Source: a virus. From it: 54,351 nt of DNA. The position numbers were made by a program, and so were the translations under genes. Shown here piece by piece: positions 11,797 to 52,896 of the stretch; the first letter of the stretch is position 1, and each line of letters begins with the position of its first letter. The stretch is taken from the IMG/VR virus record IMGVR_UViG_3300045988_082110, positions 1 to 54,351 of that record. One strand, given 5' to 3'. Under the pieces are notes generated by a model that saw nothing but the letters and a program-made list of their open reading frames with translations, searched no databases and was not told the DNA's origin.

Positions 11797-11804
11797 TATC
11801 TTTG
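11797..11804 (+). promoter_or_regulatory. -7 box TATCTTTG
   Basis: Perfect TAnnTTTG, 31 nt before ATG 11835. There is no AACGGATAA 24 nt upstream. Confidence 0.5.
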
Positions 11805-11834
11805 CAGCATCATAAACTTTTAAATTATATAGGT

Positions 11835-26413: not shown

Positions 26414-26525
26414 GAAGATTGGCTATGCTGATTCCTGCACCAAATGATGATGTGATGGTCGGGGAGCATCCATCAGCAGTTTTCGGTATTGCTATCTTCG
26501 GGGTAGAGTTTTTCGATTGATTCAT
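26379..26525 (-). CDS. C5-methyltransferase fragment 2 (TRD-like, 48 aa)
   Basis: Hand translation gives MNQSKNSTPKIAIPKTADGCSPTITSSFGAGISIANLLGVDHFPKGGY. It ends just after a G7 run (C7 at 26385-26391 on the plus strand). Confidence 0.45.
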   Translation of the reverse strand: MNQSKNSTPKIAIPKTADGCSPTITSSFGAGISIANLLGVDHFPKGGY

Positions 26526-27231
26526 TGATGTCTGCTTTGGTGAGATACTTTTCTAGGAGGGGCTGAGATAGAAAATATTCAGGAGATACACCATCTTCCA
26601 ATATGTCCTCAACCGTTGACTCTAACTTGATAGGAGAAGGGAAGTGGTACTCTGGGCTCGGCTCGTCTTCTGTGCGTAGGATGGAGATAACAAAGATACG
26701 CTCACGATTCTGAGGGATTCCGTAATCTTTTGCATTCAGTACCTTGTAGAAGGAGGTGTAACCGAAGGAGTCAAGGTCTTTGACGTACTGGAAGAAGTAC
26801 TTTCTCATTGACTTTGAGAGAAGACCTTTTACGTTTTCGAGCATAACGTACTTTGGTTTCTTGACTGCCAGCATTCTCTTCTCCTGAAAGATAAGGGATG
26901 AGCGTGTTCCGCTGCCTTCCTCTGCTCCTTGGCGAAGTCCTGCATTGGAGAAATCTTGGCATGGTGAAGACCATGATATGAAGTCGAAGTCGGGAACCTC
27001 ATTCCAGTCTATCCTTGTCACGTCTCCATAGTTAGGTATATCTCTTCCGTGCAGGAGTCCGTAGGCTTGGATGGCTGATGGTTCTATCTCTGAGTAGCCC
27101 ACTACCTTGAAGTCGAACTCAGGATGCTTATCTTTGAGGTACTTGAAGGCTAGGCTCTGACTGCCATATCCTGCGAATGCCTCAAAGACTCTGAGAGGAT
27201 GCTGCTTGTTGTACTTACTGATTGCTATCAT
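26473..27231 (-). CDS. C5-cytosine DNA methyltransferase fragment 1: motifs I to VIII
   Basis: FEAFAGYGS (motif I), SSPCQDFSNAG (IV), MLENVKGL (VI), QNRERIFVI (VIII). Confidence 0.88.
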   Translation of the reverse strand: MIAISKYNKQHPLRVFEAFAGYGSQSLAFKYLKDKHPEFDFKVVGYSEIEPSAIQAYGLLHGRDIPNYGDVTRIDWNEVPDFDFISWSSPCQDFSNAGLRQGAEEGSGTRSSLIFQEKRMLAVKKPKYVMLENVKGLLSKSMRKYFFQYVKDLDSFGYTSFYKVLNAKDYGIPQNRERIFVISILRTEDEPSPEYHFPSPIKLESTVEDILEDGVSPEYFLSQPLLEKYLTKADINESIEKLYPEDSNTENC

Positions 27232-32192: not shown

Positions 32193-32271
32193 TGGGGCGC
32201 AAGGTGGGACTCGAACCCACGACCTCGAAGGCTCATAAACCTTCATACTCTACCAACTGAGTTACTTGCGC
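32193..32271 (-). tRNA. tRNA with a non-canonical anticodon arm (20 nt instead of 17); identity undetermined
   Basis: Acceptor stem GCGCAAG/CTTGCGC, U8, D arm ACTC-AGTTGGTA-GAGT, variable loop AGGTC, T arm GTGGG-TTCGAGT-CCCAC, discriminator C, encoded CCA. The anticodon arm is TGAAGG-TTTATGAG-CCTTCG. Confidence 0.8.
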
Positions 32272-32829: not shown

Positions 32830-33690
32830 TCAGTTGAATTTGAGGGTTTGTTGACTGGCACTAGCTGCCTTGGCTGGCTCTGTTCTACCAGTGCCCTTAT
32901 TGCTGGGAGTGTTCTCCTGCTCTATCAAGGGGAGAATGCCCTTCGCTTTGAGTGATTCATATAGGAAGATTCTTCCTTTCGTTGCCCACTCGGTGTTGTA
33001 CTTCACATCATGCCGACCATCACTCCTTACGATGTCTACTGCTCTGCTGTGAACATATCCACCTTCTAAGAACTGGGCAAACAATATCCATTGACCTCTT
33101 ACCTTGTGCTGGATTCTCATAGACTCCAACTCCTTGTTTAACCTCATGGCACTCATTCCGTAGTCCTGAGCAATCTGAGTAACGGTCATAGTGGCATTAC
33201 TCTGCAAGATTTTGTCGTAGTAGCTGACCTTCGGCAGCATTTCGGTAATCTTGTTGCCGAGTTCCATGTTCGTCTTGCTGATAGTGAGGATTTGTTCCTG
33301 CTGCTTCTTATTTTCCAAAGCTAGCTGCTGTTTCTCCTCCTCAGCCTTGACCAGAGATTTGAGAGCTTCGAGATAGTTCTGAGGAACGGATGGCTTTTGA
33401 TGTTGCTCTTCCAGTTCCTTCCATCGTTTAATCAACTTGGCTCTCGCTTCATCGTTGAACTTGGTGGCGATGTAGAGACATTCTTCCTTGTTGAGGGAGT
33501 AGCAAGGTCTCGTCTCGCCTTTTTCATCTTTGTAATCAACCAGCTCAAACTTGCGCCCGTTGATATTTTCCCAAGCTGGCTCCATGTTTCTGATTGCTCT
33601 CATAACATTTTTGTGGAGCCTTGCAGTAATCTCTGCAATCTGTAGTGATGTCATTCTGTCACCATCTACAATAGTTGAAAGTTCATTCAT
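32830..33690 (-). CDS. Rha-family regulator fused to a KilAC/antirepressor C-terminal domain
   Basis: N-terminal MTSLQIAEITARLHKNVMRAIRNM, a coiled-coil middle region, and a C-terminal TVTQIAQDYGMSAMRLNKELE. Confidence 0.7.
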   Translation of the reverse strand: MNELSTIVDGDRMTSLQIAEITARLHKNVMRAIRNMEPAWENINGRKFELVDYKDEKGETRPCYSLNKEECLYIATKFNDEARAKLIKRWKELEEQHQKPSVPQNYLEALKSLVKAEEEKQQLALENKKQQEQILTISKTNMELGNKITEMLPKVSYYDKILQSNATMTVTQIAQDYGMSAMRLNKELESMRIQHKVRGQWILFAQFLEGGYVHSRAVDIVRSDGRHDVKYNTEWATKGRIFLYESLKAKGILPLIEQENTPSNKGTGRTEPAKAASASQQTLKFN

Positions 33691-37627: not shown

Positions 37628-37668
37628 AACGGATAAAATACGAATCTCGGATGGTATCAGTATCTTTG
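37628..37668 (+). promoter_or_regulatory. Late-type promoter: AACGGATAA-N24-TATCTTTG (giant-ORF operon)
   Basis: The 9-mer is at 37628-37636, followed by 24 nt and the box at 37661-37668. The ATG is at 37701. Confidence 0.65.
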
Positions 37669-37700: not shown

Positions 37701-38366
37701 ATGATAGGTGCATTAATAGGTGCTGGGCTTGGTCTTGCAAGCAGTATTGCTGGCGGTATAGCTAACCGCAAGGTGAGAAAAAAGCAGGAGCAGATGATTG
37801 CTCAGCAGCAGAGAGAAAATCAGGCATGGTATGATAGAAAGTATAATGAAGACCCTACCAAGCGTGCTGATACGGTTCGATTGCTCACACAGATGCAGGA
37901 GCAGATTAAGAACAGAAACAAGGCAGCTAAGGGTAGACAAGCGGTGATGGGTGGTACGGAAGATTCCACTACTGCGGTAAAGGAGGCGAACAACAAGACT
38001 CTTGCTGATACTACCTCACAGATTGTGGCTGCTAATGATGCCCGAAAGGATAACATTGAGCAGCAGTATATGAACAGAAAGAACCAGTTGCAGAACCAGC
38101 AGATGAGTATTGACGCTGAGAAGGCTGCTGATACTGCCAATGCGGTTGCTGGTGTGGCTGGTACTGCTGCCAATATCGCTGCATCGCTTGATAGTGGTGC
38201 TGGTGGTGCGAAGAAGGCACCGAATATGAATGTGACTCAGGAGCAGTTGAATGGTATCGCTAAGGACTCAAATGATGTTCTTGGCTTGAAGGCTAAGGCT
38301 ACGGCTCTTCCTTCTGAGGGTGACTTGAATAGCCTTGGGGCTAAACTTCAAAAGATTAAAGCATAA
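37701..38366 (+). CDS. Internal virion/DNA-pilot-like protein (Gly-rich hydrophobic N-terminus, Gln-rich coiled coil)
   Basis: MIGALIGAGLGLASSIAGGIANRK followed by Q/N/A-rich helices. This composition resembles ejection or pilot proteins. Confidence 0.5.
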   Translation: MIGALIGAGLGLASSIAGGIANRKVRKKQEQMIAQQQRENQAWYDRKYNEDPTKRADTVRLLTQMQEQIKNRNKAAKGRQAVMGGTEDSTTAVKEANNKTLADTTSQIVAANDARKDNIEQQYMNRKNQLQNQQMSIDAEKAADTANAVAGVAGTAANIAASLDSGAGGAKKAPNMNVTQEQLNGIAKDSNDVLGLKAKATALPSEGDLNSLGAKLQKIKA

Positions 38367-38370
38367 GCCT

Positions 38371-39459
38371 ATGAAAGCATCAGATATGTTACGAAACAAC
38401 AATGGCTTGAAGACAACACAGAGTGTTCTCAATAAGCAGCAGAGTGGGGTGGATGCCGCTCAGAAGGTGGCACAGACTCAGGCTCCAGTCTTCACCCAGC
38501 AGCAACTTGATGCGGCTGGCAAGAAGGTTGACCAGATGAATGCTGCCACTCCTCAGAATGAAACACCTACGATGAAGGCGGCTAGAGAGAAGACTATCGC
38601 TACTCAGCAAGCTATCGCCAATGGTGTAGATGTGAATCAGGGTGCGCCAAGTGATGAGGAGGATAAACCATCTGTCCCTATCGTGAAGAAGGAGGAGCCT
38701 AAACCTCAGCCTAAGCAGTTGTCTTATGCTGATATGTATAAGATGCTGAATCCTGAACTGAATGAGACTGCTGAGCAGAGGGCGAACAGAGAGAAGAAGG
38801 AACGTGCCAAGGCTCGTATCGCTGCTACTGGTGATGGTCTTCGTGCGCTCGCCAATATTTTCTTTGCTACGAATGGTGCCAAGGTGGTACACAATCCTGA
38901 GTCGGATATGACTAAGGCGGTGAATAAACGCAAGGCTTATATGGATGCTCAGAGAGAGAAGAATCGGGCATCATGGCTGGCAGGGTATCAGAGGGCACTC
39001 GCTCTTGATGAGGAAGCTAGGAAGAATAACCTGACTCTCGCTGAGCAGATGAGGTATCACGATAATATGGATAGAGTCAATAGAGCAAAAGCCATGTTAG
39101 ACCAAATGAGGATAGCAAAGCAAGATGAATACAATAAGGGTAAATTAAGTAATCAGGAGTCTGCGAACAAAGAATCTGTTCGACATCATAAAGAGCAGGA
39201 AAGTATTAGTAGGAAGAATGCCAACGCTAATGTGACTAGAGCACAAAAGGCAGGGAAAAATAAAGGTGGTTCTTCTAAAGAAAACTATAATAAAACTCTC
39301 GCTGGTTTAACTACTAATGACCCTAATGGAGTAAGAGCGGTTACTAGGAGTTTGAAACGTGATGGTGTTCCTCAAAATGCACAGACAATAGTAGAGGCTT
39401 ACAGAACACGGAAGGGTTCTTCTTCATCTAATGGTAGAACACTTCATGGAATAAAATAA
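38371..39459 (+). CDS. Lys/Gln-rich hypothetical internal protein (362 aa)
   Basis: The first ATG after the TTG-started track ORF, 4 nt after the upstream stop. Confidence 0.5.
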   Translation: MKASDMLRNNNGLKTTQSVLNKQQSGVDAAQKVAQTQAPVFTQQQLDAAGKKVDQMNAATPQNETPTMKAAREKTIATQQAIANGVDVNQGAPSDEEDKPSVPIVKKEEPKPQPKQLSYADMYKMLNPELNETAEQRANREKKERAKARIAATGDGLRALANIFFATNGAKVVHNPESDMTKAVNKRKAYMDAQREKNRASWLAGYQRALALDEEARKNNLTLAEQMRYHDNMDRVNRAKAMLDQMRIAKQDEYNKGKLSNQESANKESVRHHKEQESISRKNANANVTRAQKAGKNKGGSSKENYNKTLAGLTTNDPNGVRAVTRSLKRDGVPQNAQTIVEAYRTRKGSSSSNGRTLHGIK

Positions 39460-39466
39460 TTATAAT

Positions 39467-42400
39467 ATGGCTACAAGAAAAGAGATTGCACAGAATCAAA
39501 AGATTCTATATGATGATGCAGTTGCAAACAATATGTTTCAGGCTGCTGTACCTAGCTTTAAGGAGTTTCAGAAGCGACTCGAAGGTCAGGGGTATCAGAA
39601 AATGGTGTATGATAACTACAAAAAGCACAATGTGAGAGGAAAGGGATTTAATAATCTCAATGAGTTCCGTGGTGCTTTTGGTGGTTCTTTCTATGCTGAT
39701 GAAAATAAAATTGGTGTATCGGCTGGGGCAGCAGCTATCTCGGCTAGTGCTCAGCAGACAAAGAACAATGCTGGCAGATACAATAGACTGAAACAACGCA
39801 AGCAGAAACAGCAGAAGGATTTCGGTCGTGTGAACTTGGGTACACATCAGACTCCTTATGGTGGTGATGCAAACAATGTGGTGAAGGATGATTTTGCTTA
39901 CAATCCTGAGACTGGCAAGACTGGCGCATACGTTACCTCGGACAATGAGAATGCTTATTCTCTTCCTGAAGCTGAGCAGATGCAAGCTATTCTTGACAAG
40001 CAGAACGATGCCTATCAGGTAGCGGTAGATACTGGCGAGATTCCATCTGCATTTGATGTTCGTGACAAGAATGGTAACTATGACTTGCAGGAGAACATCG
40101 GCAAGAATGGAACCTACCTTACTGAGGAGGGTGCTCAAAAGCAGTTTGACAAGAAACTGGCTGATGCCTATGCTCGAAAGAAGGAGATTGAGGCTCTTAT
40201 CGCTGAGGATAATCGGCAACACGGAAATCCTTTGCTCTCTTATGGTGCTAGTATCGGTGCAAGTAACGGAAGAACTGCTGAGCAGAGTGACTATAGAAAT
40301 AAGTTGGCAACCTCTCTTTCTCTGGTTAAGCAGCAGATTGGTGCGCTGGAAGCGGTGAAACAATATCCTACAAGTAGCTGGGGTGAGGATGCCTTGAAGG
40401 CTCTTGACAATACTGCATTTACTGCAAAAACATGGGATTTCGGTCTTACTGACTTCGCTACTATGGGGCAGATGGAACGTATCAAGACAAAGATGGATAA
40501 CAATATTCCTCTCTCAGGTTCTGATAAGATGCTCTTGAAGAGTAAACTGGGTGCGGATGCTGCTGCGGCTCTTGAAGACGAGAAGATGGGTAACGTCTAT
40601 CGTTGGACGAAGATTGCAGGGCAGAGTCTCCCATTTATGGCTGACTTTTTCTTGACTGGCGGTTATGGTGGTATTACTAAGGGCATCAGTCGTGGAGCCT
40701 TGAAGATTGCTGCTAAGCGTGGCATGGGCAAGGTGAGTGCTGCGGTCTTGAAGAATACTGGTATTGTGATTGGTGATATTATCGGCTCGTATGCGATGGC
40801 TGGAACTGAGCAAGCGTTGAAGACTGGTGCTGACATCATGCAGCGACATCTTGGTAATCTGTATCAGGATGAGAAGGGTGATTATAAGTTTGGTACTTTC
40901 GATGAGAATGGAAATCTTCTGCATGAGGGTGGTGAGTCTATTGGTACTGCTCTCTATAAGGGTATGACCTCTGCTATGGTAGAGAACTATACTGAAAAAC
41001 TCTTCGGTCACAACTATGGTATCAAGAAGGGTGCTGTCAACTTTATGGAGAAACATGGTATGAATGCTTCTGCTGAGTTCTTCAAGAATATCGGCAAGAG
41101 TGGATGGTATACCAATTCCAAGAAGTGGATGGAGAAGTTCGGTATCAATGGTTTCGCTGAGGAAGTTATGGAGGAGGAAATTGGTATTCCTCTTCATGCC
41201 TTGCTGGATGGTGAAGGTAAGGTTAGCGACCTTCTTGATGCTAAGCAGCAACTCGACATCATCGGTGGTATGGCTATCTCGGTCGGTTCTATGTATGCGA
41301 TGGGTGCTGGCTCCCGACCAGTAAAAGGTATCTACAATCGTGCTCAGTATTACCGATTCCGCAACAAGGTGAACGTGGCTGATAGTGATGCTCAGAACCT
41401 TATGGGCGATAACTGGGCAGACATCAAGGATAAGATAGACAACGCAACCAACGAGCAGATGGGTGGCGTGCTGGCTGATATTCTCAGACAGAGAGATACC
41501 ATGACCAAGGAGCAGATTAATGCTGCTGTTAACTATGGTGTCAACCTGATGAAGATGCGTGGCTACAATATTGCCAAGACTGCTGAAATGAATGCCAAGG
41601 AGATAACCAATGAGCCTACAACACCTGAGGAGCAGCATCAGGCAGATATTGACAACGCTTATTCTGAGGGGCATGATGCTGATGATGCAGACAAGCATGA
41701 TATTCAGATTCAGCAGGAAGACCAGATGAAGACTCTTGCAGCAGCATTGGGTATCTCTGAGCAGCAGCTATCTGCCATGAGTGACGAGGAACTGGAATCC
41801 ATGACTGGGCAGGATGATAAACTTGACCAAGCTATCTATGACTACCAGTTGTCTTCTGCCCGATACCAAGGTGTGGTTGATGATGCACAAGACAAGGTTG
41901 ACCTTGCTGCTCATCAGGCAGAGCAGAGAGTGGATATGTACACAGACCAGAGTCGTAGTTCTGTCCGTAACGCTACTATCAAAGCATTAGGTGGCTTGGA
42001 AGACTATGGTGTTTATATTATCAGTGGTAATATTGCTACTCATGATGATGGCTCCATTGATGTAAGCAATAGCGATGGTATGATTCTATACTATGACCCG
42101 ACAACGAATAGTGTAGAACATGCTGATGCGTTGATGTTCGCTGAACTGGGTGAAGAACTCCCTGCTGATGATGTGAAGGCTCAGGCAGTAGCTGATGCAA
42201 AAGAGAATGCTATCAAGGAAGTGGCTGGCATCATTGATGGAACCGTTGAAATTGGCTCCCAGTTCAATGTGACTGATACTGATGGTACTGAACATACCTA
42301 TGAGGTGTTGGCTGACTATGGTGATGGTACTGCTGCTATCTCTATAGATGGTAACGTGGTGGAGAATCCTTATTCGCTTGCAGACTTGCAGCAGATGAAA

Positions 42401-45400
42401 GACTTGGAAGACCAGAAGAGACTGGAAGCTGCCAAGGCTGAGCGTGAGCAGATGGAAAAAGAACGTGCTGCCCAGCAGAATCAGGAGACAGAAGAGACTC
42501 AACCTTCGTTTGACTTCAATCAGATTCTCAATGATAATGGTAACGTGGTGCTCGTTGATGTGCTCGACAAGGATGGTAATACCAAATATCCTGACTCTAG
42601 ATTGTTCCTCATTCGTGATGCTGGTGCCAAGGCTAAGGTAGTTGAGTTGAAGAGTGATGGTACTATTGTTCCTCATGCTGTGAACAAAGAAGATGTGGCA
42701 ACTATCTCTTCTATGTCGCTCGATGAATACAAACAAGCTATGCCTGAATCCTCAACAATAGAGGATAATAGTGGAGAAGAATCTGATGAGGATTCTCAGT
42801 TGGCAAATCTCGGTTTGCCTAAAGGTAGCGAGATATGGATGAGTGGCGATGGATTCGGAAGACCAAAGGAAAACACTCTATCAAAAGTTGTTGGTATTGA
42901 TGAGCAGGGCAGTATAATCCTTGAAGATAAGGATGGTAAAAAGTGGTCTGCATCATTTGATTATATCAACAACCATCGTGAGCTTCCACCTTTGGATGAG
43001 AATACCAATATCGTTAATGAGGAGAATAATCAATCTGAATCAAATGCTGAGGAGAACACTCCTGCTCCTGAGCAGACTCCTGCTATTACTCTTGAAGATG
43101 GAACCATTGTTCCTATGCTGGAGGATGGCAATCCTGACTTCTCGAAGCTGACTGCCGCACAGACTGCTGAGTTGTATGATACTCAGTTCGGTGAGGATGC
43201 AGATAGTATCGTATCTGGATATGTGTCTGACGCAAAGAAGGCACTCGACAAGGCTAGCAACATGACCGTGAAAGGTAAGACTTTCGTGGAACAGAAGGCT
43301 GCCAAGGATGCCAAGGAGAAGGCTATTGCTGATGCTCAGGCGGTTTATGATTCTGCTATCGCTATTCGTGATGCTTACAACGAGCGACAACTGGCTAAGG
43401 TGGAAGATACTGCTGAGGGTAGAAAGGAACTCATTGAGAAGGCAAGAAGAAAGTTCGCTCGCTTGAAGAGTGCTGTTAAGGATGATGCTGAGGCTGTATC
43501 ACAACTCTACCGAGAAACTATCGGTTCTCTCCTTCATCGTCTGTATGATAGTACTGGTATTGACGTGACTGATACAACTCCGCTTACTGCTGAGGAGTAT
43601 GTGGCTAGCAACCTCGGTGCTCACTCTCTCAACTTAGAGGGAACAGAGACAAGCAAGGGTGTTAAGCAGGAGACTGGATTGAGCAGAGAAGACTTTGCCA
43701 AGACTCAGTTGCTCGCTGCTGATGGCAAGGGAACTACTATTGATGCGCTCGTTCACAGCTTGTGGGAGAATCGTCCATCCAACCTTGAATCACTCGACAC
43801 TCAGGATATTCGTAACGCACTTATCGGTGTACTCAATAGCGGTTTTAAGGCATCGGAAGCAAGGAATTTTGTTGAAAATATTCGCATTGCTCAGGCAGAG
43901 AACATACTTGAAGAGCAGAAACGTGCTCAGGAGAATGCAGCCTATGCTGAGCAGCACAAGGCTGAGCCAGAGGCCGAGTTGAAGGCGAAGTCGGATGAAA
44001 AGGCTGAGTTGAAGGCGAAGTCTGAGGCGAAGTTGGATAATGAATCGTCTAATGAATCTAATGATTTGTCTAATGAAACGGATAATGAGAAGATAAATGA
44101 CAATATAAATGATAACATAAATGTTCCTGAGGATGCTACTGATGAGAATCCTTTAGGCGCACAGCGTGATGAATCTGACCTTCCTTTCTCTGCTAAGGAG
44201 AATGGTATGCAGCAGACAACTGCCGTGCGTGCTGCTGACGTGGAGAAGAATAAGGTGAATGATATGAAGGTTGTTGACAATATCGTAGGGCAGAAGACTC
44301 GCAAGGCTTTCGAGAGACTGGCTAAGATGATGGGTGCTAACATTCAATGGCAGTACTCTGACAAGTTGGGCAACGGCTGGATTCAGGAGACCAAGGATGC
44401 CGATGGCAACGTTCATCGTACCATCTTCATCACTCTTGACTCTTCTATCACGGAAGGTGCTCAATTTATCTTCGGTCACGAAATGACCCACCAAATCAAG
44501 AACCTGAACCCTGCTGCATACAATGAGTTGACTCAGCTTGTGCTTGATACCTATGGCTCTGATGCCTTCGACAAGGCGGTGGATGAGACCATGCAGAGAT
44601 ATTCTGATGCTGGATTCTCTGGACGTGCTAGAGATTACTATGCTGAGGAGGTTGTTGCTGATTCGGTAGGTGAAATGATTCGTGACTTGAACCTTGCTCA
44701 CACTCTAGCCATGAAGATGTCTCATCCTCTGCTCGCTGCTATCCATGAGATATTGCAGAAGATTAAGTTGGCATTCTTTGGTACTGAGTATAGCGATGTG
44801 ACCAAGAACATCATCCGCTCTATCGAACAAGCCTACGTGAAGACTGCCAATGGTCAGGTAACGAATTCTGAAACTGGCGAAGATGTTGCCTTCTCTCTCC
44901 GTCAGAAACCTGAACCTAAGAAGAAGGGTGTCGGCTACAAGGTGTTCGTGCTAAAGGATGGCAAACTCTATCCACCAATGGTAGCGAACCCTGATGGCGC
45001 TGCTACTCCAGTTGGTGTATGGCTCGATGCTGATGCGGCTCCTATTGCAGGAGAAAGCAAGACTGGCAGACCTCAGGTTAAGCAGGGCGGCAAGGGAACA
45101 CAAGGCGGTAGCGGTAAGCTAGCCTATAGACCAGGCTGGCATCTTGGTGTAGTGCCTTATGCTATTCAGTTCAATCGCAAGGATGCTGAGGGAAACAAGA
45201 CTCTCTTCCCTAAGAACTTCGTCTTCGCTGAGGTGGAGTATGCTGCTGATGTTGATTATCAGGAGGAAGCTCGCCAAGAGGGTATCAATCCATCGGGCAA
45301 GTATCAGCATTCATTGGCTGGTTTGAAACATCTGCCTACTGATGGATATTATATGTATCGTACCAACCCGAACCCTGAGACTGACCCTTGGGTGATTACT

Positions 45401-48400
45401 GGTGCGATGAAGGTGAACCGTATCTTGACCAGAGCAGAGCAAGCGGAACTTGTGAAGAATGCCGGACGTGAACCTCAGCAGATTCAGGAGGGCGATATTG
45501 TTACTGATGATGTTGTGAACAGCATCAATCAGGAGATAGCTGCTGCTCCTAAGTTCTCGTTGAAGGTGTATCATGGTAGCGGTGCTGACTTCACAGAGTT
45601 TGACTTCGACCACATGGGCGAGGGTGCTGGCTCCCAAGCATTCGGTTGGGGTGGCTATGTTACCTCTTCAAAGAAGATAGGAAAGGACTATGCTCGGTTA
45701 GGTAAGGAGACTGGCGGTGACTATCAGTATATGGGTGACACGAAACTTACCTCAGAACAAGCAAGGGTTCTTGCTGTTTTTGTAGGTTTACCTGCATACA
45801 AGGAATATTCATCTATGAAGGAAGGAGTTGGTGCTTATATTAAGTCTTTGCGTACCTTGGAACAGAAGGGTGGTTTTATGGCAAAACATGCTGGAGAACG
45901 TATCAAGGTACTGGAGAGTGTTCTCCCTAAACTTGACAAAGTGAGCAGATATGATTTTGCGCACAAGTCTCGTAATCTCTATGAGGTTGATATACCTGAG
46001 GATAATGGCAGCAACTATATTGAGTTCTACGAAGATGCTACCCCTGAGTTTAAAGAACAGATTAAGAGTGTGTTGGCAAATGGTCTCCCTTCTGAGTTGA
46101 AGAAAATGCCTGAGTACAAAGAGGCTGAACGGAAATTCTATGAGGAGAACGGAACAGATGAATCGTTTGAGAAGTCTCTTATTGATGATGCTCTATTTGA
46201 GTTGGAACGTAGAAAAAGTAATGGCGATGCTTATAATGCGTTGTCTGTTGCTGTTGGTGATAAACTGGCAAGCAAAATTCTTTCTTCGCTCGGATATACA
46301 GGTATCAAGTACCCTGCTGGCACCATAATGGGTGGCGCTGAGGAAAATGATACCAACTATGTTATCTTTAAGCCTGAGGATATGAAAATCACAGAGCATA
46401 CCAAGTTCTCTCTCCGTTTGAAGTCTGCTATTGAGGAGACTGAAACCAATCCATCTGACGCACAGAAAGAGAGTGGCAACTACAAGAAGGGACACATCAA
46501 GTTCGGTGGCTACGATTACACTATAGAAAATCCGAAGGGTTCTACTCGCTCAGGCAAGGATGCCGATGGGAAAGAATGGAAAGTTATCATGCACGATACC
46601 TATGGTTATATCCGTGGTAAGTTTGGCAAGGATGGTGACCATTTGGATATGTTCATCAATGACAAAGCAGACCTTGATAATTGGAATGGTGATGTGTTTG
46701 TCGTTGACCAAGTGAATCCTGATGGCTCGTTTGATGAGCATAAGGTAATGTATGGCTATGACTCCATGGATGATGCCAAAAAGGCTTATCTCGCCAACTA
46801 TAGCGATGGTTGGCAAGGTCTTGGAAATATTACTGGAGTAAGCAAGGATGAGTTCGACAAGTGGCTTGATACGAGCAATCGTAAGCTAAAGCCATTTGCA
46901 GACTATGCTAAAGTAAAGTTCTCGTTGAAGGATATAAAGCCAGTAGGTGTTGGTGCTTTCGGAAATATATACAACCAGTTCCGTGGCAATGCCAAGGCTG
47001 CAATCGAGTTCTTGAAGAAGGTTCGTGGTGGAGAAGCTGTCGGTGCTCTTCATCACAAGGATATTGGTGATATTGATTTGGTTTGGGGCAAAGAAGGAAC
47101 TGGACATAGTGATGGCTATGGTCTTTCTAAACTTGTGAAGTATCATCCTGAGGTTCTTGATAATTTGCAGGAGATTCTGAATGATATGCGTGTAGTTTCA
47201 AGCAGTAAGAATCGTGTAAACTTGGAAAGTGAAACCCATAAGGCTGGTGTTCGTCTTACTTGGGATGGAGAAAGAAAATCTTGGTTGTTGACTGCATTTA
47301 AAAAGGAAACTTCGGCAAGCGACAAGAGGACAGACACTGCCGCTACTTCGTTGGAAGGTGACACCGCTCTCTCCCAAACCGAAGGTTCTGCTGCAAAGAT
47401 AGACAATTCTTCTGAAACTGCCAAGGAAAATGGCGAAAAAGTTGATGTTGAGGCTCCAAAAACTTTCGATGAGTTCCTGAATCATCCTTCTTTGAAGTTC
47501 TCTATCAAGAATGAGCAGCAGAGAAAAGCGGCTGAGGATGCTTATATCGTGGGGAATACCCGATTCTCCTTGCGCTATGACCAGTTTGAGCATGACCTGA
47601 ACCAGTGGAAGAAGGATAATAATCTGCCTAAGGATGCACAGAGGCCAACCATCCCACATCGCAATGCTGGAGAGAGTGCCGTTGACTTCCTGAGGAGAGT
47701 AGACGAGTACCGCAAACAGATGGCTCTGTGGAAGACTGCTCCAACCTACGAGCAGCATCTTTTGAGCGATGATACTGCCCTTGGAGAGTTCAACCGAGAG
47801 TTGCAGCGTGGTTCTGTGCTGAAACGTATCGCCTTCCAAGATAGTATGCTGGCTATCCGCAAGGCTCAGGAAGCTATCATGAAGGAAGTGGGTGTTGACC
47901 GCCTGAACATGGCTGAGGATGCCTATACTGCCGAGAACCGCAGTCATGGCAAGGGAAAGAACGAGTTTGAGGAGTACAACAATGAGTTCTTGCAGCCATT
48001 GAGAAAGGCTTATCATCAGATGAAGAAGATACTGGGTGACAGCTATGATAATGTCCGTATCTACATGATGGCTAAGCATGGTTTGGAACGTGATGCTCAG
48101 ATGGCATTCAAGAAGTCTTTGGAAGCTGATTATGAGGACGTGGCTCAGAGAAGTGCGGCATACAAGGCTTACAAGGGCGATATGAACCGTATTATCAATG
48201 ATAGCGATTTGGAGTTTGGAAGAGTGGATTTCACTACTTGGAGACAGAGAGATAACGCTCTCAGAACGAAATACTCTCCTTCCTATATGGACTATCGTTA
48301 TGATGAGAATGGTATTGCCTACGATTATTCAGGTTTGTCTGCTCTCTATGACGGCTCAGACTTTGAGGAAGCTGCCTACAAACTGGTAAAGGATATTGAG

Positions 48401-51157
48401 GATAAGTATGTAACCGAGACTCACAACCTCTGGGATGCAACGAATGCGGCAACCAAGAAGATTCTCCGTGATGGCTACAAGGCTGGAATGATGAGCAAAG
48501 ATACCTATCAGTATGTGCGTGATATGTATAGCCATTATATTCCTCTCCGTGGCTGGGATGGCACTACTGCCGACCAAGTATGGGACTATATTGGTGGCGG
48601 CAAGGGTGCTTTCAATCAAACCTTGAAGAAGGCACACGGACGTACCTCTATCGCTGATGACCCTATCGCATACATCGAGAATATGGCAGAGAGTGGAATC
48701 CTGCTGAACAACAAGAACTGGGTGAAGCAACACCTGATGCTCTTGGCTCAGAATCATCCAACCTCTCTTCTTACCCTGAGCAAGGCTTGGTACGTGAAGA
48801 GTGTGGATGATAATGGCAACGAAGAGTGGATTCCTGCTACACCTCAGATTACTTCTCAGATGGATAGCAATCAGGTGAAGGCTGCCATTGATGCTTTCGA
48901 GAAGAAGATGGAGAAGATGGCTCAGACTGGCGATGCTACCCAAAAGAGAGACGGACTGAATATAGCCTATCCTCAGACTCATAGCGAGGAGAGAGAGCAT
49001 GAGGTAAGAGTGATGAAGGATGGCGAGGAGTACGTTATCTACGTGAATGGTGACCCTCAGTTGGCTCAGGCGATGAACAATACTAGAGCACACCGAGTAA
49101 GAGAGATTCAGAGCGGCAAACTTGATAGGGCTGCTGCTTGGTTGGGCAGAAAGATGGCTGCTGCCTATACCAGTCTTTCACCTCTCTTCATCCCTTCCAA
49201 CTACTTCCGAGACCTGACCATGACGCTGGCATCTACCGCTATTCGTGAGGATGGCAGATACAACTATCTGCTCAGAAAGAATCTGGCTACCTCTTGGAAT
49301 CTCGGTTTCATGCTGAGAGACTATCAGAACGGCAAGTTGAGAGATAAGGTAAACAACGGAAACGCTACACCAAAGGAACAGATGTTCTATGACTTCATGA
49401 TGAATGGTGGCGAAACTGGCTTTGTCTCTTCGCTTGATGTGGAAGACTTGAAGAAGAAATTCAAGAATGACTTGAAGGATTTGGATAGATGGAAGGCGAA
49501 CCCAGTAAAGGTAGGGCATACCATCATGGATAGTATCGAGTTCCTGAACAGAATGATTGAGGATAGTAACCGATTTGCGGTTTACATGACCTCTATTCAG
49601 TATGGACGTTCCATTGATGAGGCGGTGAATGATGCCAAGGACGTGACCCTGAATTTCAACCGAAAGGGTACAGGCGAATATGGCTGGCAGATGATTAGAA
49701 ATCTCTATCTCTTCATCAACCCAGCGGTACAGAGTTTGCAGACATTGGGTGCGCTTGCCAAACATCATCCTTTCAAGTTTACGGCTGTTACTGCATCGTG
49801 GTTGGCGAGTGGCGTGCTGGTTCCTATCGTTAACGCTGCTCTGATGAGTATGTTGGGTGGTGATGATGATAATAAGGATAAGTACTGGCAGTTCACAAAG
49901 TGGGATAGACGAAACAACCTGATTATGTGGGTTCCTTTCACTCATGAGTATGTGAAGATTCCGCTTGCTCAGGAGTTCCGTGCCTTTTATGGAATAGGTG
50001 ATATGATTGCATCCAAGATGATGGGTGGCGAGTTGGCTGAGGAGAGTTGGAGTCAGTATGCAGAAGACTTGCTCGGTCAGGTAGTGGATATGCTTCCGCT
50101 TGACCCTACTGGCTATGATGGCAATATTGCTGTCAGTCTGATGCCGAATGCTATTCGTCCAGTCTTTGAGTTGGCTTTCAATATTGACTTCACTGGTAAG
50201 CCATTATTCAAGGACACAGAGTATAACAAGTATGACCCTAACTTCACCAAGGCATACGTGGGAACTCCTGATTGGTTGGTGCGTGCTTCCAAAATGGTTA
50301 ACTCAATCGGAAACGACTATCCTGATGTGCAGCAGAATAGCATAGATGCTTTCGGTGACCCAAGATACAATCTGAATAACCCTGCCGTGGTTGACCATGT
50401 ATTGTCTTCTTATCTCGGTGGTGCTTACACCATGGGCAGTCAGGTGCTCGGTTTGCTTACCAAGTCACTCAATGACCCGAAGGAAATCAAGGTGGCTGAT
50501 ATTCCATTATTCAGCAAGTTCGTCAGCAATCCTGATGATAGACCGGTTACTAAGAAACAAGGTGATGAGTTCTGGGATATGAAGGAGAATCACGACCGAG
50601 CAGCCAATACCCTGAGCAAGTTGAAGAAACAAGCTAAGGTGGATGGCGATTACTCTATGCTGGAGCGGTTCTACGGCTCTGAGGAGTATAAGCAGTACAA
50701 GCAGGATGATGCGAAGGTGAAGAAGTATGAGGAAGACAAGAAGAAGGAACGTGCTGAGGAGAGTGGGGAGGAGTATAGACCTCACAAGTTGAATGCCGAG
50801 GATATTTACAAGGCTCATGCTACTCCGAAGGATGATTTCGAGGACTTGAAGCTGAAACAACTCTACACCAAATTGAACGGATTCAAGACTTCCTATGACC
50901 TCTTGGTTGATACGGCTCCTAGTCAGAGCGATGGCTACTACAACACCAACAAGGCTGCTATTGATGCCATTGACGAGATTTCTCTTGATAAGCAGGAAAT
51001 ATCCGAGTTAAAGAAAGGTTTCTTGGATGATGGCAAGGATGCCTACAACGCTGAGGACATGAAACAGATTCGTGAACTTAGAAAGAAGATTCTTTCCGTG
51101 CTGGAAAAGGCTAACAAGGTAGTTGTGGCTAACCAGAAGGCGAAGGCTGAGAAGTAA
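39467..51157 (+). CDS. Giant polyvalent virion protein (3,896 aa)
   Basis: A single uninterrupted ORF of 11,691 nt containing several enzyme-like modules (see the sub-features below) and a C-terminal hydrophobic helix (about 49780-49860). Confidence 0.85.
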   Translation: MATRKEIAQNQKILYDDAVANNMFQAAVPSFKEFQKRLEGQGYQKMVYDNYKKHNVRGKGFNNLNEFRGAFGGSFYADENKIGVSAGAAAISASAQQTKNNAGRYNRLKQRKQKQQKDFGRVNLGTHQTPYGGDANNVVKDDFAYNPETGKTGAYVTSDNENAYSLPEAEQMQAILDKQNDAYQVAVDTGEIPSAFDVRDKNGNYDLQENIGKNGTYLTEEGAQKQFDKKLADAYARKKEIEALIAEDNRQHGNPLLSYGASIGASNGRTAEQSDYRNKLATSLSLVKQQIGALEAVKQYPTSSWGEDALKALDNTAFTAKTWDFGLTDFATMGQMERIKTKMDNNIPLSGSDKMLLKSKLGADAAAALEDEKMGNVYRWTKIAGQSLPFMADFFLTGGYGGITKGISRGALKIAAKRGMGKVSAAVLKNTGIVIGDIIGSYAMAGTEQALKTGADIMQRHLGNLYQDEKGDYKFGTFDENGNLLHEGGESIGTALYKGMTSAMVENYTEKLFGHNYGIKKGAVNFMEKHGMNASAEFFKNIGKSGWYTNSKKWMEKFGINGFAEEVMEEEIGIPLHALLDGEGKVSDLLDAKQQLDIIGGMAISVGSMYAMGAGSRPVKGIYNRAQYYRFRNKVNVADSDAQNLMGDNWADIKDKIDNATNEQMGGVLADILRQRDTMTKEQINAAVNYGVNLMKMRGYNIAKTAEMNAKEITNEPTTPEEQHQADIDNAYSEGHDADDADKHDIQIQQEDQMKTLAAALGISEQQLSAMSDEELESMTGQDDKLDQAIYDYQLSSARYQGVVDDAQDKVDLAAHQAEQRVDMYTDQSRSSVRNATIKALGGLEDYGVYIISGNIATHDDGSIDVSNSDGMILYYDPTTNSVEHADALMFAELGEELPADDVKAQAVADAKENAIKEVAGIIDGTVEIGSQFNVTDTDGTEHTYEVLADYGDGTAAISIDGNVVENPYSLADLQQMKDLEDQKRLEAAKAEREQMEKERAAQQNQETEETQPSFDFNQILNDNGNVVLVDVLDKDGNTKYPDSRLFLIRDAGAKAKVVELKSDGTIVPHAVNKEDVATISSMSLDEYKQAMPESSTIEDNSGEESDEDSQLANLGLPKGSEIWMSGDGFGRPKENTLSKVVGIDEQGSIILEDKDGKKWSASFDYINNHRELPPLDENTNIVNEENNQSESNAEENTPAPEQTPAITLEDGTIVPMLEDGNPDFSKLTAAQTAELYDTQFGEDADSIVSGYVSDAKKALDKASNMTVKGKTFVEQKAAKDAKEKAIADAQAVYDSAIAIRDAYNERQLAKVEDTAEGRKELIEKARRKFARLKSAVKDDAEAVSQLYRETIGSLLHRLYDSTGIDVTDTTPLTAEEYVASNLGAHSLNLEGTETSKGVKQETGLSREDFAKTQLLAADGKGTTIDALVHSLWENRPSNLESLDTQDIRNALIGVLNSGFKASEARNFVENIRIAQAENILEEQKRAQENAAYAEQHKAEPEAELKAKSDEKAELKAKSEAKLDNESSNESNDLSNETDNEKINDNINDNINVPEDATDENPLGAQRDESDLPFSAKENGMQQTTAVRAADVEKNKVNDMKVVDNIVGQKTRKAFERLAKMMGANIQWQYSDKLGNGWIQETKDADGNVHRTIFITLDSSITEGAQFIFGHEMTHQIKNLNPAAYNELTQLVLDTYGSDAFDKAVDETMQRYSDAGFSGRARDYYAEEVVADSVGEMIRDLNLAHTLAMKMSHPLLAAIHEILQKIKLAFFGTEYSDVTKNIIRSIEQAYVKTANGQVTNSETGEDVAFSLRQKPEPKKKGVGYKVFVLKDGKLYPPMVANPDGAATPVGVWLDADAAPIAGESKTGRPQVKQGGKGTQGGSGKLAYRPGWHLGVVPYAIQFNRKDAEGNKTLFPKNFVFAEVEYAADVDYQEEARQEGINPSGKYQHSLAGLKHLPTDGYYMYRTNPNPETDPWVITGAMKVNRILTRAEQAELVKNAGREPQQIQEGDIVTDDVVNSINQEIAAAPKFSLKVYHGSGADFTEFDFDHMGEGAGSQAFGWGGYVTSSKKIGKDYARLGKETGGDYQYMGDTKLTSEQARVLAVFVGLPAYKEYSSMKEGVGAYIKSLRTLEQKGGFMAKHAGERIKVLESVLPKLDKVSRYDFAHKSRNLYEVDIPEDNGSNYIEFYEDATPEFKEQIKSVLANGLPSELKKMPEYKEAERKFYEENGTDESFEKSLIDDALFELERRKSNGDAYNALSVAVGDKLASKILSSLGYTGIKYPAGTIMGGAEENDTNYVIFKPEDMKITEHTKFSLRLKSAIEETETNPSDAQKESGNYKKGHIKFGGYDYTIENPKGSTRSGKDADGKEWKVIMHDTYGYIRGKFGKDGDHLDMFINDKADLDNWNGDVFVVDQVNPDGSFDEHKVMYGYDSMDDAKKAYLANYSDGWQGLGNITGVSKDEFDKWLDTSNRKLKPFADYAKVKFSLKDIKPVGVGAFGNIYNQFRGNAKAAIEFLKKVRGGEAVGALHHKDIGDIDLVWGKEGTGHSDGYGLSKLVKYHPEVLDNLQEILNDMRVVSSSKNRVNLESETHKAGVRLTWDGERKSWLLTAFKKETSASDKRTDTAATSLEGDTALSQTEGSAAKIDNSSETAKENGEKVDVEAPKTFDEFLNHPSLKFSIKNEQQRKAAEDAYIVGNTRFSLRYDQFEHDLNQWKKDNNLPKDAQRPTIPHRNAGESAVDFLRRVDEYRKQMALWKTAPTYEQHLLSDDTALGEFNRELQRGSVLKRIAFQDSMLAIRKAQEAIMKEVGVDRLNMAEDAYTAENRSHGKGKNEFEEYNNEFLQPLRKAYHQMKKILGDSYDNVRIYMMAKHGLERDAQMAFKKSLEADYEDVAQRSAAYKAYKGDMNRIINDSDLEFGRVDFTTWRQRDNALRTKYSPSYMDYRYDENGIAYDYSGLSALYDGSDFEEAAYKLVKDIEDKYVTETHNLWDATNAATKKILRDGYKAGMMSKDTYQYVRDMYSHYIPLRGWDGTTADQVWDYIGGGKGAFNQTLKKAHGRTSIADDPIAYIENMAESGILLNNKNWVKQHLMLLAQNHPTSLLTLSKAWYVKSVDDNGNEEWIPATPQITSQMDSNQVKAAIDAFEKKMEKMAQTGDATQKRDGLNIAYPQTHSEEREHEVRVMKDGEEYVIYVNGDPQLAQAMNNTRAHRVREIQSGKLDRAAAWLGRKMAAAYTSLSPLFIPSNYFRDLTMTLASTAIREDGRYNYLLRKNLATSWNLGFMLRDYQNGKLRDKVNNGNATPKEQMFYDFMMNGGETGFVSSLDVEDLKKKFKNDLKDLDRWKANPVKVGHTIMDSIEFLNRMIEDSNRFAVYMTSIQYGRSIDEAVNDAKDVTLNFNRKGTGEYGWQMIRNLYLFINPAVQSLQTLGALAKHHPFKFTAVTASWLASGVLVPIVNAALMSMLGGDDDNKDKYWQFTKWDRRNNLIMWVPFTHEYVKIPLAQEFRAFYGIGDMIASKMMGGELAEESWSQYAEDLLGQVVDMLPLDPTGYDGNIAVSLMPNAIRPVFELAFNIDFTGKPLFKDTEYNKYDPNFTKAYVGTPDWLVRASKMVNSIGNDYPDVQQNSIDAFGDPRYNLNNPAVVDHVLSSYLGGAYTMGSQVLGLLTKSLNDPKEIKVADIPLFSKFVSNPDDRPVTKKQGDEFWDMKENHDRAANTLSKLKKQAKVDGDYSMLERFYGSEEYKQYKQDDAKVKKYEEDKKKERAEESGEEYRPHKLNAEDIYKAHATPKDDFEDLKLKQLYTKLNGFKTSYDLLVDTAPSQSDGYYNTNKAAIDAIDEISLDKQEISELKKGFLDDGKDAYNAEDMKQIRELRKKILSVLEKANKVVVANQKAKAEK
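44264..44836 (+). other. Zincin-like metallopeptidase module in the giant ORF
   Basis: FIFGHEMTHQIKNL (HEMTH at 44477-44491), with downstream AEEVVADSVGE. Confidence 0.6.
45554..46396 (+). other. ADP-ribosyltransferase-like (H-Y-E class) module in the giant ORF
   Basis: KVYHGSGADFTEFDFDHMGEGAGSQAFGWGGYVTSS, then NLYEVDIPED. This resembles the HGS ... G.G.Y ... E pattern of PARP/DT-type ARTs. Confidence 0.4.
46406..46906 (+). other. Family I inorganic-pyrophosphatase-like module in the giant ORF
   Basis: YTIENPKGS...TYGYIRGKFGKDGDHLDMFI...DEHKVMYGY parallels E. coli PPase [20 protein letters not shown]. Confidence 0.55.
46919..47326 (+). other. Possible barnase/EndoU-type nuclease module in the giant ORF
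   Basis: DIDLVWGKEGTGHSDGYGLSKLVKYHPEV ... WLLTAFKKE. The assignment is from memory of polyvalent-protein nuclease domains and is low certainty. Confidence 0.3.
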
Positions 51158-52400: not shown

Positions 52401-52467
52401 TGTTTAACTTGGGAGTTTTGGCACCGACATTTATGCCGTGACCAGACTCCCTTTAATATTCAGCAAT

Positions 52468-52896
52468 ATGGGAAAATGCAGAATGCCATTGGATATGTAT
52501 GACCTCAAACCTGAGGGAATGGTTTCTTATCTAAGATACAATGGCTATCATTTCAGCAAGAAGATGTGCGAGTGGGCGGTGAGCCTGATGTACAAGTATG
52601 ACCCTTCCTCCAAGCGTGATGTAAGTGTCTCGTTTTGGGATAAGGAGAAGGTGGATGCCCTTCTGCTTGGTCAGGGAGTAGAGGTAAAGAATAAGGCTGG
52701 CTACGACCATGTATATGTGGCGAATATGGCAAGGGCAGACTTCTACAAGTCTTCCATCAAGGATGAGGAGCAGCTAGCCCAGTTCATCAAGGATATGGTG
52801 GATGATTCCGACCAGAAGGATGGTTTCATCTTTAATAGATTTTATGCCGACTGCTGCCACAACGGTGTGCCTATCCCTTGGGAAGATGTGTTATGA
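52468..52896 (+). CDS. Hypothetical protein, paralogue-like to 11835..12320
   Basis: This is the first ATG in the track ORF 52438..52896. Contains YLRYNGYHFSKKMCEWAVSLMY. Confidence 0.5.
   Translation: MGKCRMPLDMYDLKPEGMVSYLRYNGYHFSKKMCEWAVSLMYKYDPSSKRDVSVSFWDKEKVDALLLGQGVEVKNKAGYDHVYVANMARADFYKSSIKDEEQLAQFIKDMVDDSDQKDGFIFNRFYADCCHNGVPIPWEDVL

Follow-up and report, generated by a model that had tools for sequence, protein, structure and literature searches.

A giant gene of a Bacteroides-type phage predicted to encode a polyvalent protein with exchangeable enzyme modules and a recurrent motif at the module joints

What kind of protein is encoded by a single gene that takes up more than a fifth of a phage genome? 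This question is raised by the IMG/VR virus record IMGVR_UViG_3300045988_082110, which was analyzed over its whole length of 54,351 nucleotides (nt), here called the window. Its giant open reading frame (ORF), at 39467..51157 on the (+) strand, spans 11,691 nt, or 21.5% of the window, and in the ORF list and its translation it begins with ATG and runs for 3,896 amino acids (aa) to one stop at the end. With about 3 stops in every 64 codons, an ORF of this length is not explicable by chance, and an independent public Logan contig (L004) encodes the identical protein. An initial annotation, made from the letters alone, had described a single uninterrupted 11.7-kb ORF of 3,896 aa covering about 21.5% of the genome, and the ORF list, the translation, and the second contig all bear this out. 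The window can be classed as a podovirus-like genome related to the Bacteroides phages BKO1-TP3, BS-TP4, and BF1-TP2, which the searched passages of PMC12694917 describe as cultured temperate phages. Sequence comparison supports placing the giant ORF in the known class of "polyvalent proteins," and we consider it likely that it encodes a phage polyvalent protein that is packed in the capsid, is expelled with the DNA, and carries a string of host-directed enzymes. The parts of the protein are, from its N terminus to its C terminus:

39467..43966 (+), putative N-terminal carrier region, aa 1-1500, without a catalytic family; weak LPD14 signal at aa 537-619
43967..44278 (+), acidic/Asn/Ser (Asp/Glu/Asn/Ser) low-complexity linker, aa ~1501-1604
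44279..44890 (+), HExxH zincin-like domain, aa ~1605-1808 (H1671, E1672, H1675, E1727/E1728, D1732)
44891..44902 (+), junction motif 1, (A)FSLR, aa 1809-1812, immediately C-terminal to the zincin
44903..45553 (+), "GYKVF...YRPGWH" module, aa 1813-2029, a conserved mobile domain (PHROG 30118)
45554..45565 (+), junction motif 2, (K)FSLK, aa 2030-2033; homology to the metagenomic phage L007 ends at aa 2034
45566..46405 (+), ADP-ribosyltransferase (ART) module, ART-PolyVal, aa 2034-2313 (H2036, Y2064, E2173)
46406..46417 (+), junction motif 3, (K)FSLR, aa 2314-2317; homology breakpoint with the metagenomic phage L008 at aa 2316
46418..46918 (+), type I inorganic-pyrophosphatase-like module (InPase), aa 2318-2484 (Pfam PF18823)
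46919..46930 (+), junction motif 4, (K)FSLK, aa 2485-2488
46931..47497 (+), Barnase/EndoU/colicin-E5/RelE-like nuclease module (PBECR1), aa 2489-2677 (Pfam PF18809)
47498..47509 (+), junction motif 5, (K)FSIK, aa 2678-2681
47564..47575 (+), junction motif 6, (R)FSLR, aa 2700-2703, where the C-terminal block begins; homology to L007/L008 resumes at aa 2691/2697
47576..51154 (+), putative C-terminal carrier block, aa 2704-3896 (~1,200 aa), mostly helical and common to giants of many podophages
49784..49861 (+), the only strongly hydrophobic helix, aa 3440-3465 (Kyte-Doolittle 19-residue mean, 1.79)
49877..50509 (+), LPD38 domain, aa 3471-3681 (Pfam PF18857, 82 bits, E value of 8e-23, profile positions 2-188 of 189)

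The polyvalent layout proposed in the initial annotation is reflected in four Pfam families, InPase, PBECR1, ART-PolyVal, and LPD38, which were defined on polyvalent proteins and all of which reach Pfam thresholds in segment-wise profile searches. The InPase family is matched with 171 bits (E value of 1.1e-50) over profile positions 1-134 of 135, and seven Asp residues make up its conserved acidic positions (D2365, D2389, D2391, D2394, D2414, D2419, and D2423). PBECR1 scores 38.8 to 42.2 bits against a threshold of 27.6, with conserved residues H2529, D2535, H2560, K2620, and T2624. ART-PolyVal (PF18760) reaches 36.7 bits against a threshold of 31.2 when the module is searched as a tile and 25.5 bits, under the threshold, in the whole-protein scan. 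Its H-Y-E residues are nonetheless intact, lying in HGS at aa 2036, GWGGY at aa 2064, and YEV at aa 2172-2174; the H and Y are conserved in 23 to 24 of 26 relatives and the E, present in this protein, in 12 of 26. The three modules first read by eye as an HGS...GWGGY...YEV ADP-ribosyltransferase-like domain, a pyrophosphatase-like domain, and a possible barnase/EndoU-like nuclease thus each have a named family.

Polyvalent proteins are recognized by at least two unrelated effector-type network domains and by being phage encoded near virion genes. The scores of ART-PolyVal, InPase, PBECR1, and LPD38 provide the former; for the latter, terminase, capsid, and portal genes are present in the window and a T7 gp14-family gene lies upstream. 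The polyvalent proteins surveyed by Iyer et al. in 2017 (PMC5512222) likewise combine an ART, a BECR-fold nuclease, InPase, and LPD domains in one giant, together with a zincin, to which the zincin-like domain of the giant ORF would correspond, and they too are encoded by phages beside virion genes. Indeed, ART, PBECR1, InPase, and metallopeptidase domains were already described there as hubs or members of the polyvalent network, so that the module combination is less unusual than had been suggested. The giant ORF differs from the surveyed proteins in that its zincin is not Pfam MPTase-PolyVal, its GYKVF module lies outside all Pfam models, and it carries a recurrent joint motif that is not described in that paper. 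In the same survey, InPase and LPD38 are restricted to phage-type polyvalent proteins that are predicted to be packaged. The interpretation of the giant ORF as a polyvalent protein is supported by these matches to families defined in the survey and by the virion association of its homologs.

Those homologs are found chiefly through the C-terminal block, which matches PHROG 14770 (E value of 1e-148) and is 31% identical to the ends of the giants of all three cultured Bacteroides phages. A tblastn search with the block gave matches in 337 phage records, including Vibrio, Stx-converting, Ralstonia, and Burkholderia phages. The "LPD5 domain" proteins of the 933W type match over aa ~2995-3584 with E values of ~1e-22, Ralstonia phages with E values of ~1e-25 to 2e-30 (31 records), and Burkholderia phages account for 10 records. 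The LPD38-bearing gp47 of phi24B was abundant in virions by mass spectrometry and absent from the capsid and tail density, and it has been proposed to be a capsid-packed ejection protein (10.64898/2026.04.10.717836). JC1 gp69, a 4,515-aa LPD38 protein that takes up 22.1% of its genome, was detected with 51 unique peptides in CsCl-purified virions (PMC9144972). Virion delivery of the giant ORF product is proposed on the basis of its gene position and of this C-terminal homology to the giants of 933W/phi24B, Bcep22/JC1, and Ralstonia phages. A 2,198-aa putative polyvalent protein of the coliphage PTXU04 is required for infection (PMC11879866).

The C-terminal ~1,200 aa with one hydrophobic helix, as first described, are recovered as aa 2704-3896. 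In a structural model of aa 2790-3896, with a predicted local distance difference test (pLDDT) score of 77.6, the block is mostly helical, and the hydrophobic stretch lies in a predicted helix. A Foldseek search of this model against the PDB gave a best E value of 0.56, with only spurious helical membrane proteins at TM-scores of 0.10 or less, and a PDB profile search with the end regions found no relevant sequence relative. The N-terminal region is confined to a narrower group. Its only Pfam signal in aa 1-1500 is the LPD14 match (E value of 2e-4, under the Pfam threshold); a homolog search with aa 1-1050 returned 21 homologs, all from this phage group, and BKO1-TP3 gp55 and BS-TP4 gp3 match aa 237-1041 with 25% identity. 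The acidic/Asn low-complexity linker noted earlier is evident by composition: the stretch rich in these residues and in Ser covers aa ~1501-1580, windows with more than 55% D/E/N/S begin at aa 1501-1521, and NDNINDNIN occurs at aa 1544. As the end regions have no solved relative, the proposed carrier or conduit role for them draws on gene position and on the virion data of homologs.

How the middle of the protein relates to its ends is seen most directly in two metagenomic phages, L007 and L008, whose DNA is ~93 to 96% identical to the window. In these phages, aa 1-2033 (or 1563-2317) and aa ~2613/2697-3896 of the giant protein are kept at 92 to 96% protein identity, and the stretch between them differs. 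In L007 the replacement cargo comprises PBECR5, LPD13, and a C5 DNA methylase, and in L008 it comprises a second and a third ART and PBECR5. Five of the six central homology breakpoints fall within 1 to 17 residues of a junction motif, the sixth being 50 residues off. The picture is one of a carrier whose ends stay constant and of a middle that is exchanged as cargo, and since intact enzyme domains of other kinds take its place, the cargo is probably under selection. That phages ~95% identical to each other swap their central cargo, mostly at the joints, is a new observation; it marks the cargo region as a hot spot of the phage-host arms race and as a source of candidate anti-defense enzymes.

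The giant gene is the third of three tightly spaced (+) genes (37701-38366, 38371-39459, and 39467-51157), which are flanked by putative expression signals as follows:

37661..37668 (+), TATCTTTG, a match to the Bacteroides-type -7 element TAnnTTTG found by motif scan 33 nt upstream of the cassette's first gene; putative promoter element
37701..38366 (+), 221-aa Ala/Gly-rich protein of the T7 gp14 (internal virion/ejection protein) family (Pfam PF24072)
38371..39459 (+), 362-aa Lys/Asn/Gln-rich protein in the position of gp15 in T7; start as called on L004
51170..51202 (+), 14-bp hairpin with a T-rich tail directly after the giant stop, terminator-like by consensus match only

A sigma-70 promoter scan is uninformative for a Bacteroidota host, and TAnnTTTG, which we take to be the consensus of the Bacteroides-type -7 promoter element, was used in its place. 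The late-promoter operon of the initial annotation therefore stands as far as the gene order, with the giant gene third, and the promoter-like TATCTTTG element are concerned; that the cassette is expressed late is suggested by position only. Both upstream genes fit their first descriptions as a Gly-rich pilot-like protein and a Lys/Gln-rich protein. The 221-aa protein matches PF24072 over profile positions 1-178 of 187 with 27.1 bits against a threshold of 27, a borderline score; the gp14-family gene was flagged also on L004 and L007, and the protein is homologous to BF1-TP2 gp70 and BS-TP4 gp1, both of which are also upstream of giant genes. Pfam and PHROG searches with the 362-aa protein gave no match; it is 25% identical to BS-TP4 gp2, which occupies the same position in its cassette.

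All three cultured relatives share this arrangement, with two small genes upstream of a giant: BKO1-TP3 gp55 (5,553 aa), BS-TP4 gp3 (5,391 aa), and BF1-TP2 gp68 (3,633 aa). Their giants have InPase and the C-terminal block in common with the giant ORF, and those of BKO1-TP3 and BS-TP4 also have the N-terminal block, but the shared blocks are only 25 to 31% identical, and the zincin subfamily and joint motif of the giant ORF are missing from them. The searched passages of PMC12694917 do not discuss these giants. A second very large gene (~2,640 aa) is present in BKO1-TP3 (gp44; L001 26219-30655) and in BS-TP4 (gp14; L005 26961-33539), and according to the searched passages of PMC12694917, a diversity-generating retroelement targets BS-TP4 gp14. 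Nothing of this size in the window corresponds to these genes.

More distant systems resemble the giant ORF in one respect or another. The "DarB-like" giants Bcep22 gp75 and JC1 gp69, from lessieviruses and related Ralstonia phages, likewise take up ~22% of podovirus genomes of 55 to 65 kb and have LPD38 near the C terminus, but their cargo set differs, and they carry an N-terminal lytic transglycosylase and methylase- and helicase-like regions, none of which were found here in Pfam scans. Similarly, phi24B gp47 and the 933W "LPD5 domain-containing protein" have a C-terminal LPD38 region homologous to that of the giant ORF, but phi24B gp47 combines it with LPD5, LPD1, and a MuF-C metallopeptidase and lacks the ART, InPase, and PBECR cargo. 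A peptidoglycan-degrading domain, LT-like in JC1 gp69, is not universal among LPD38-type giant virion proteins. The T7 genes for gp14, gp15, and gp16 offer a parallel in arrangement: a gp14-family gene is followed by two genes of growing size in a podovirus-like genome without a tape measure. However, the second and third genes here have no sequence or fold similarity to gp15 and gp16 (the fold search covering aa 2790-3896 of the giant), and the giant ORF has no transglycosylase domain and is three times the size of gp16.

The PHROG label "DarB-like antirestriction" derives from P1 DarB, a large capsid-packed protein that guards incoming DNA. P1 DarB is a methyltransferase-helicase fusion. Methylase and helicase domains were not found in the giant ORF by Pfam scans, and the "DarB-like" PHROG profile, 4,647 positions long, is matched only at aa 1995-2480, the ART-InPase region; for the giant ORF the label is a name only.

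The zincin-like domain at the head of the cargo could act on the protein itself. The single HExxH of the giant protein is at aa 1671, and in an alignment of 61 homologs H1671, E1672, H1675, E1727/E1728, and D1732 are all conserved. An exhaustive search with the zincin gave 213 clusters, nearly all within proteins of 2,000 to 6,200 aa, and a few short distant homologs match SprT-like, DUF6782, and M78 models. A PDB profile search gave weak M13/IrrE matches around the HExxH; neither single-sequence nor profile searches of the PDB with the zincin and GYKVF regions gave a significant match. No Pfam peptidase model, MPTase-PolyVal included, matches the zincin segment. The HExxH zincin call of the initial annotation draws on the conserved HExxH with its downstream E/D residues and on the distant family links, and it is not recovered as a Pfam match to the segment.

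Directly after the zincin stands the first of six copies of F-S-[L/I]-[K/R], at aa 1809, 2030, 2314, 2485, 2678, and 2700, five of them preceded by K/R. By chance 0.11 copies would be expected, and the maximum in 2,000 shuffles was 3; an unbiased reduced-alphabet search likewise put the motif first among over-represented pentamers (P = 1.4e-7). Every copy lies at a module boundary, with none in the first 1,808 or last 1,193 residues. The same disposition is found in related giants. Among 97 compared, 186 of 190 motifs are at or past the C-terminal edge of the zincin, with a median spacing of 237 aa, and the first motif is no more than ~9 residues from that edge in 21 of 27 multimotif proteins. 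Giants with a close zincin (n = 19) have 6 to 7 motifs each and those with a distant zincin (n = 78) fewer than 1. Proteins that lack the strict motif at this place have a variant of it behind the zincin, for instance RYSLR, RLSLR, or QFSVR, and a relaxed pattern occurs 308 times in 94 giants against 71 expected.

We infer that the joint motif may be the cleavage site of the zincin acting in cis. Metallopeptidase processing of polyvalent proteins was predicted by Iyer et al. without a cleavage site (PMC5512222), and the literature searched defines none in polyvalent proteins; for the motif itself, it yielded only unrelated work on APIM and the beta-clamp. The joint motif and its tie to a dedicated zincin therefore appear to be new here. 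As a tentative proposal that could well prove wrong, the giant ORF would belong to a lineage of self-processing polyproteins in which the zincin cuts at its own C-terminal edge and then at each joint, freeing at least four effectors and two carrier fragments after ejection, with the joints serving also as connectors for cassette swaps. The nearest analogy is with the self-cleaving polyproteins of RNA viruses, in which a protease is likewise followed by the first candidate site and the same short motif recurs between downstream units. There is no homology between the two, and cleavage is here a proposal; polyvalent proteins and RNA-virus polyproteins share no domains according to Iyer et al. 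(PMC5512222). The proposal makes a candidate cleavage site explicit, with ~190 copies in related proteins, placed where a cis-acting protease would cut first.

The joints might instead be docking peptides, folding strands, or recombination micro-homologies, which we regard as unlikely but deserving of weight. RFSLK is a variant of APIM, and RFSLK peptides bind the Escherichia coli beta-clamp with a dissociation constant below 50 uM and block growth (PMC7261172); in the model of the GYKVF domain, the SLR stretch packs on the domain with high confidence. Neither clamp binding nor folding predicts that the first motif should nearly always be at the C-terminal edge of the zincin or that the motif number should track the zincin subfamily, and the motif precedes unrelated folds. 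Recombination would account for the L007 and L008 homology breakpoints 1 to 17 residues from motifs and for identical stretches of 12 to 16 nt at two pairs of sites, with AAGTTCTCGTTGAAGG occurring twice (45554-45565 and 46919-46930) and TTCTCTCTCCGT twice (44891-44902 and 46406-46417). Against this, the codons at the six sites differ, so that the motif is conserved at the protein level. Apart from any cleavage, the AAGTTCTCGTTGAAGG and TTCTCTCTCCGT micro-homologies could promote the deletion, duplication, or exchange of modules.

Taken together, the proposed virion delivery and self-processing would give the following course of infection. Synthesis of the giant protein would coincide with that of the virion proteins, the capsid would take it up along with the gp14-like and 362-aa proteins, and on infection it would leave through the portal and tail. 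Its end regions and hydrophobic helix, with the gp14-like protein, would serve packaging, exit, and crossing of the envelope. The zincin would then cut at the [K/R]-F-S-[L/I]-[K/R] joints, at its own C-terminal edge first, and each module (the GYKVF domain, ART, InPase, and the nuclease) would be freed as a separate protein of ~20 to 30 kDa. The cargo would presumably act in the first minutes of infection: the ART could modify host proteins or nucleic acids with NAD+, the PBECR1 nuclease could cut host RNA, and the pyrophosphatase could remove pyrophosphate or a nucleotide signal. So read, the protein gives a list of the probable injected cargo of a Bacteroides phage of a kind common in the human gut, namely, an NAD+-using transferase, a nuclease, a pyrophosphatase, and the GYKVF domain.

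Several points weigh against this scheme. What the analysis shows is sequence anatomy, homology, and comparative patterns, and from these we infer packaging, ejection, cleavage, and every enzyme activity of the giant protein. The score of the gp14-family protein is only 0.1 bit over the threshold, the zincin has no match to any curated peptidase model, and no solved structure, T7 gp15 and gp16 included, is related in sequence or fold to the N- and C-terminal regions, the fold search having covered aa 2790-3896. Pfam and PHROG scans of the giant protein found no peptidoglycan-cutting domain (lysozyme or transglycosylase) such as those of T7 gp16 and JC1 gp69. For the self-processing part, shared ancestry confounds the association of the motif with the zincin. 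The N4 virion RNA polymerase, moreover, bears a metallopeptidase domain yet is packaged uncut (PMC5512222). The giants of BKO1-TP3, BS-TP4, and BF1-TP2 have neither the zincin subfamily nor motif enrichment, and in a search for another joint motif in these three proteins none stood out; processing, if real, is thus lineage specific.

Other roles for the protein have to be weighed in this light. It could serve mainly in structure, as an ejection or channel protein that, like a greatly lengthened T7 gp16 or P22 ejection protein, extends the short tail across the Bacteroides envelope, with enzymes that are accessory or decayed. Its third position after a gp14-family gene, its one hydrophobic helix, the ~2,700 of 3,896 residues in noncatalytic end regions, and the same role proposed for phi24B gp47 by its authors would all suit such a protein. 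Decayed enzymes, however, are hard to reconcile with the conserved catalytic or metal-binding residues of the zincin and InPase, the intact H-Y-E of the ART, and the conserved polar residues of PBECR1, or with ~95%-identical phages that replace the cargo by other intact enzyme domains, and the protein has no fold similarity to solved ejection proteins. We therefore consider a chiefly structural role distinctly unlikely, although structural and enzymatic roles are not mutually exclusive.

A polyprotein that is never packaged and that works in the cytoplasm of the infected cell, to take over the host or to fend off competing phages, is very unlikely in our view. The sequence gives no proof of encapsidation, and single modules do occur as ordinary small genes, even in an apparent bacterial chromosome (L002). 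But the gene lies on the strand of the structural genes, after a gp14-family gene; LPD38-class giants (phi24B gp47 and JC1 gp69) were found in virions by mass spectrometry; and the restriction of InPase and LPD38 to phage-type proteins predicted to be packaged, noted above, argues in the same direction. Anti-defense enzymes made late would, moreover, presumably come too late for the incoming DNA. Phages with giant packaged RNA polymerases infect Bacteroidota, and with 1,500 residues of no assigned function an N4- or crAss-like virion RNA polymerase could in principle be hidden in the N-terminal region. This reading is scarcely credible and was dropped: Pfam and PHROG scans of the giant protein gave no RNA polymerase family, the DxDGD/DxDxD motif is absent throughout it, and none of the 21 close homologs, the only ones returned for aa 1-1050, is annotated as a polymerase. 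A packaged polyvalent protein with enzymatic cargo remains the reading that we prefer.

Within that cargo, the GYKVF...YRPGWH module, whose defining motif spans aa 1823-1892, matches its first description as a module of unknown function; it is a discrete, widespread domain with a confident model. A 450-aa query comprising the zincin and GYKVF module matched 436 proteins, and most of the 120 matches listed cover the GYKVF module at 55 to 98% identity. Among the matches listed, its fusion partners are DUF4406, XkdF-like, MuF_C, LPD13, ART, and glutamine deamidase domains. An AlphaFold model of the module has a pLDDT score of 92.7, and Foldseek of this model found nothing significant in the PDB (best E value of 0.35) and only uncharacterized viral proteins in BFVD. 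ART-fold toxins (RES, exotoxin-A-like, diphtheria toxin, tankyrase, and Arr) were over-represented among the weak PDB matches, and a relationship to ARTs was therefore tested; it was rejected, as hhalign against the ART-PolyVal module gave a probability of 0.4%. GYKVF would thus be a very conserved and widespread domain with a new predicted fold.

The same module also occurs outside giants. At L002 7664-9271 (ENA ERZ27253442, a 52-kb contig), a stand-alone 535-aa protein consists of the end of the zincin, a GYKVF domain 78% identical to that of the giant ORF, and LPD13. This contig is bacterial-chromosome-like, with LuxS, TonB, ribosomal S15, and BipA genes, and the gene adjoins a Gp49/HTH toxin-antitoxin-like pair; the 535-aa protein could be a piece of a polyvalent protein that has been domesticated or is a mere remnant. 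In L009 (8920-16912) and L011 (9562-16602), separate small DUF4406, DUF3990 (ART-like), and GYKVF genes immediately precede giant polyvalent genes, which encode 3,657 and 2,346 aa, respectively. Fusion and fission of the same modules across phages appear to be common.

Homolog searches were done with three segments in a database that apparently holds no proteins above ~2,000 aa, and full-length relatives came via the exhaustive search only; a megablast search of the giant gene against phage records gave zero matches. The major capsid protein of the window is 42 to 60% identical to those of BKO1-TP3, BS-TP4, and BF1-TP2, with the 60% value for BKO1-TP3. Annotation of the window ORFs gave the following virion and lysis genes:

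2694-4910 (-), large terminase
6708-8249, major capsid protein
9413-11449, portal
12654-13202, endolysin

Other genes of the window encode an Erf/exonuclease recombination pair, a DNA methyltransferase, a replication initiator, and an anti-repressor. ORFs of 400 aa or more number just five, namely, those of the terminase, the capsid protein, the portal, a 997-aa protein (phrog_32516), and the giant protein, which leaves no candidate for a tape measure or sheath, fits a short-tailed phage, and agrees with the earlier remark that an obvious tail tube or tape measure is missing. Bases 1-77 of the window are repeated near its end (in the last 5 kb), the kind of overlap that an assembler would leave in a circular contig, and the complete genome would then be ~54,274 bp.

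Some cargo functions of this giant or of related giants are also present in the early region as separate genes, a stand-alone pyrophosphatase (phrog_9236) at 24564-25166 (-) and a stand-alone DNA methyltransferase at 26473-27231 (-). No integrase was seen among the window ORFs scanned, which took in part of the small ORFs; the relative BF1-TP2 carries an integrase and a repressor, and the window has an Ant/Rha-like anti-repressor gene at 32830-33690 (-), as in temperate phages. Two DUF7841 paralogues, both (+), are found after the portal (11802-12320) and after the giant gene (52438-52896), with E values of 1e-10 and 3e-24. A tRNA at 32193-32271 (-), with an Rfam score of 53.8 bits, has an abnormal anticodon loop, which folds as an 8-nt loop or as a 6-bp stem with a 6-nt loop. 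ARAGORN reads a four-base anticodon, "tatg," for which no amino acid can be named, and the gene could be quadruplet reading, a frameshift suppressor, or degenerate.

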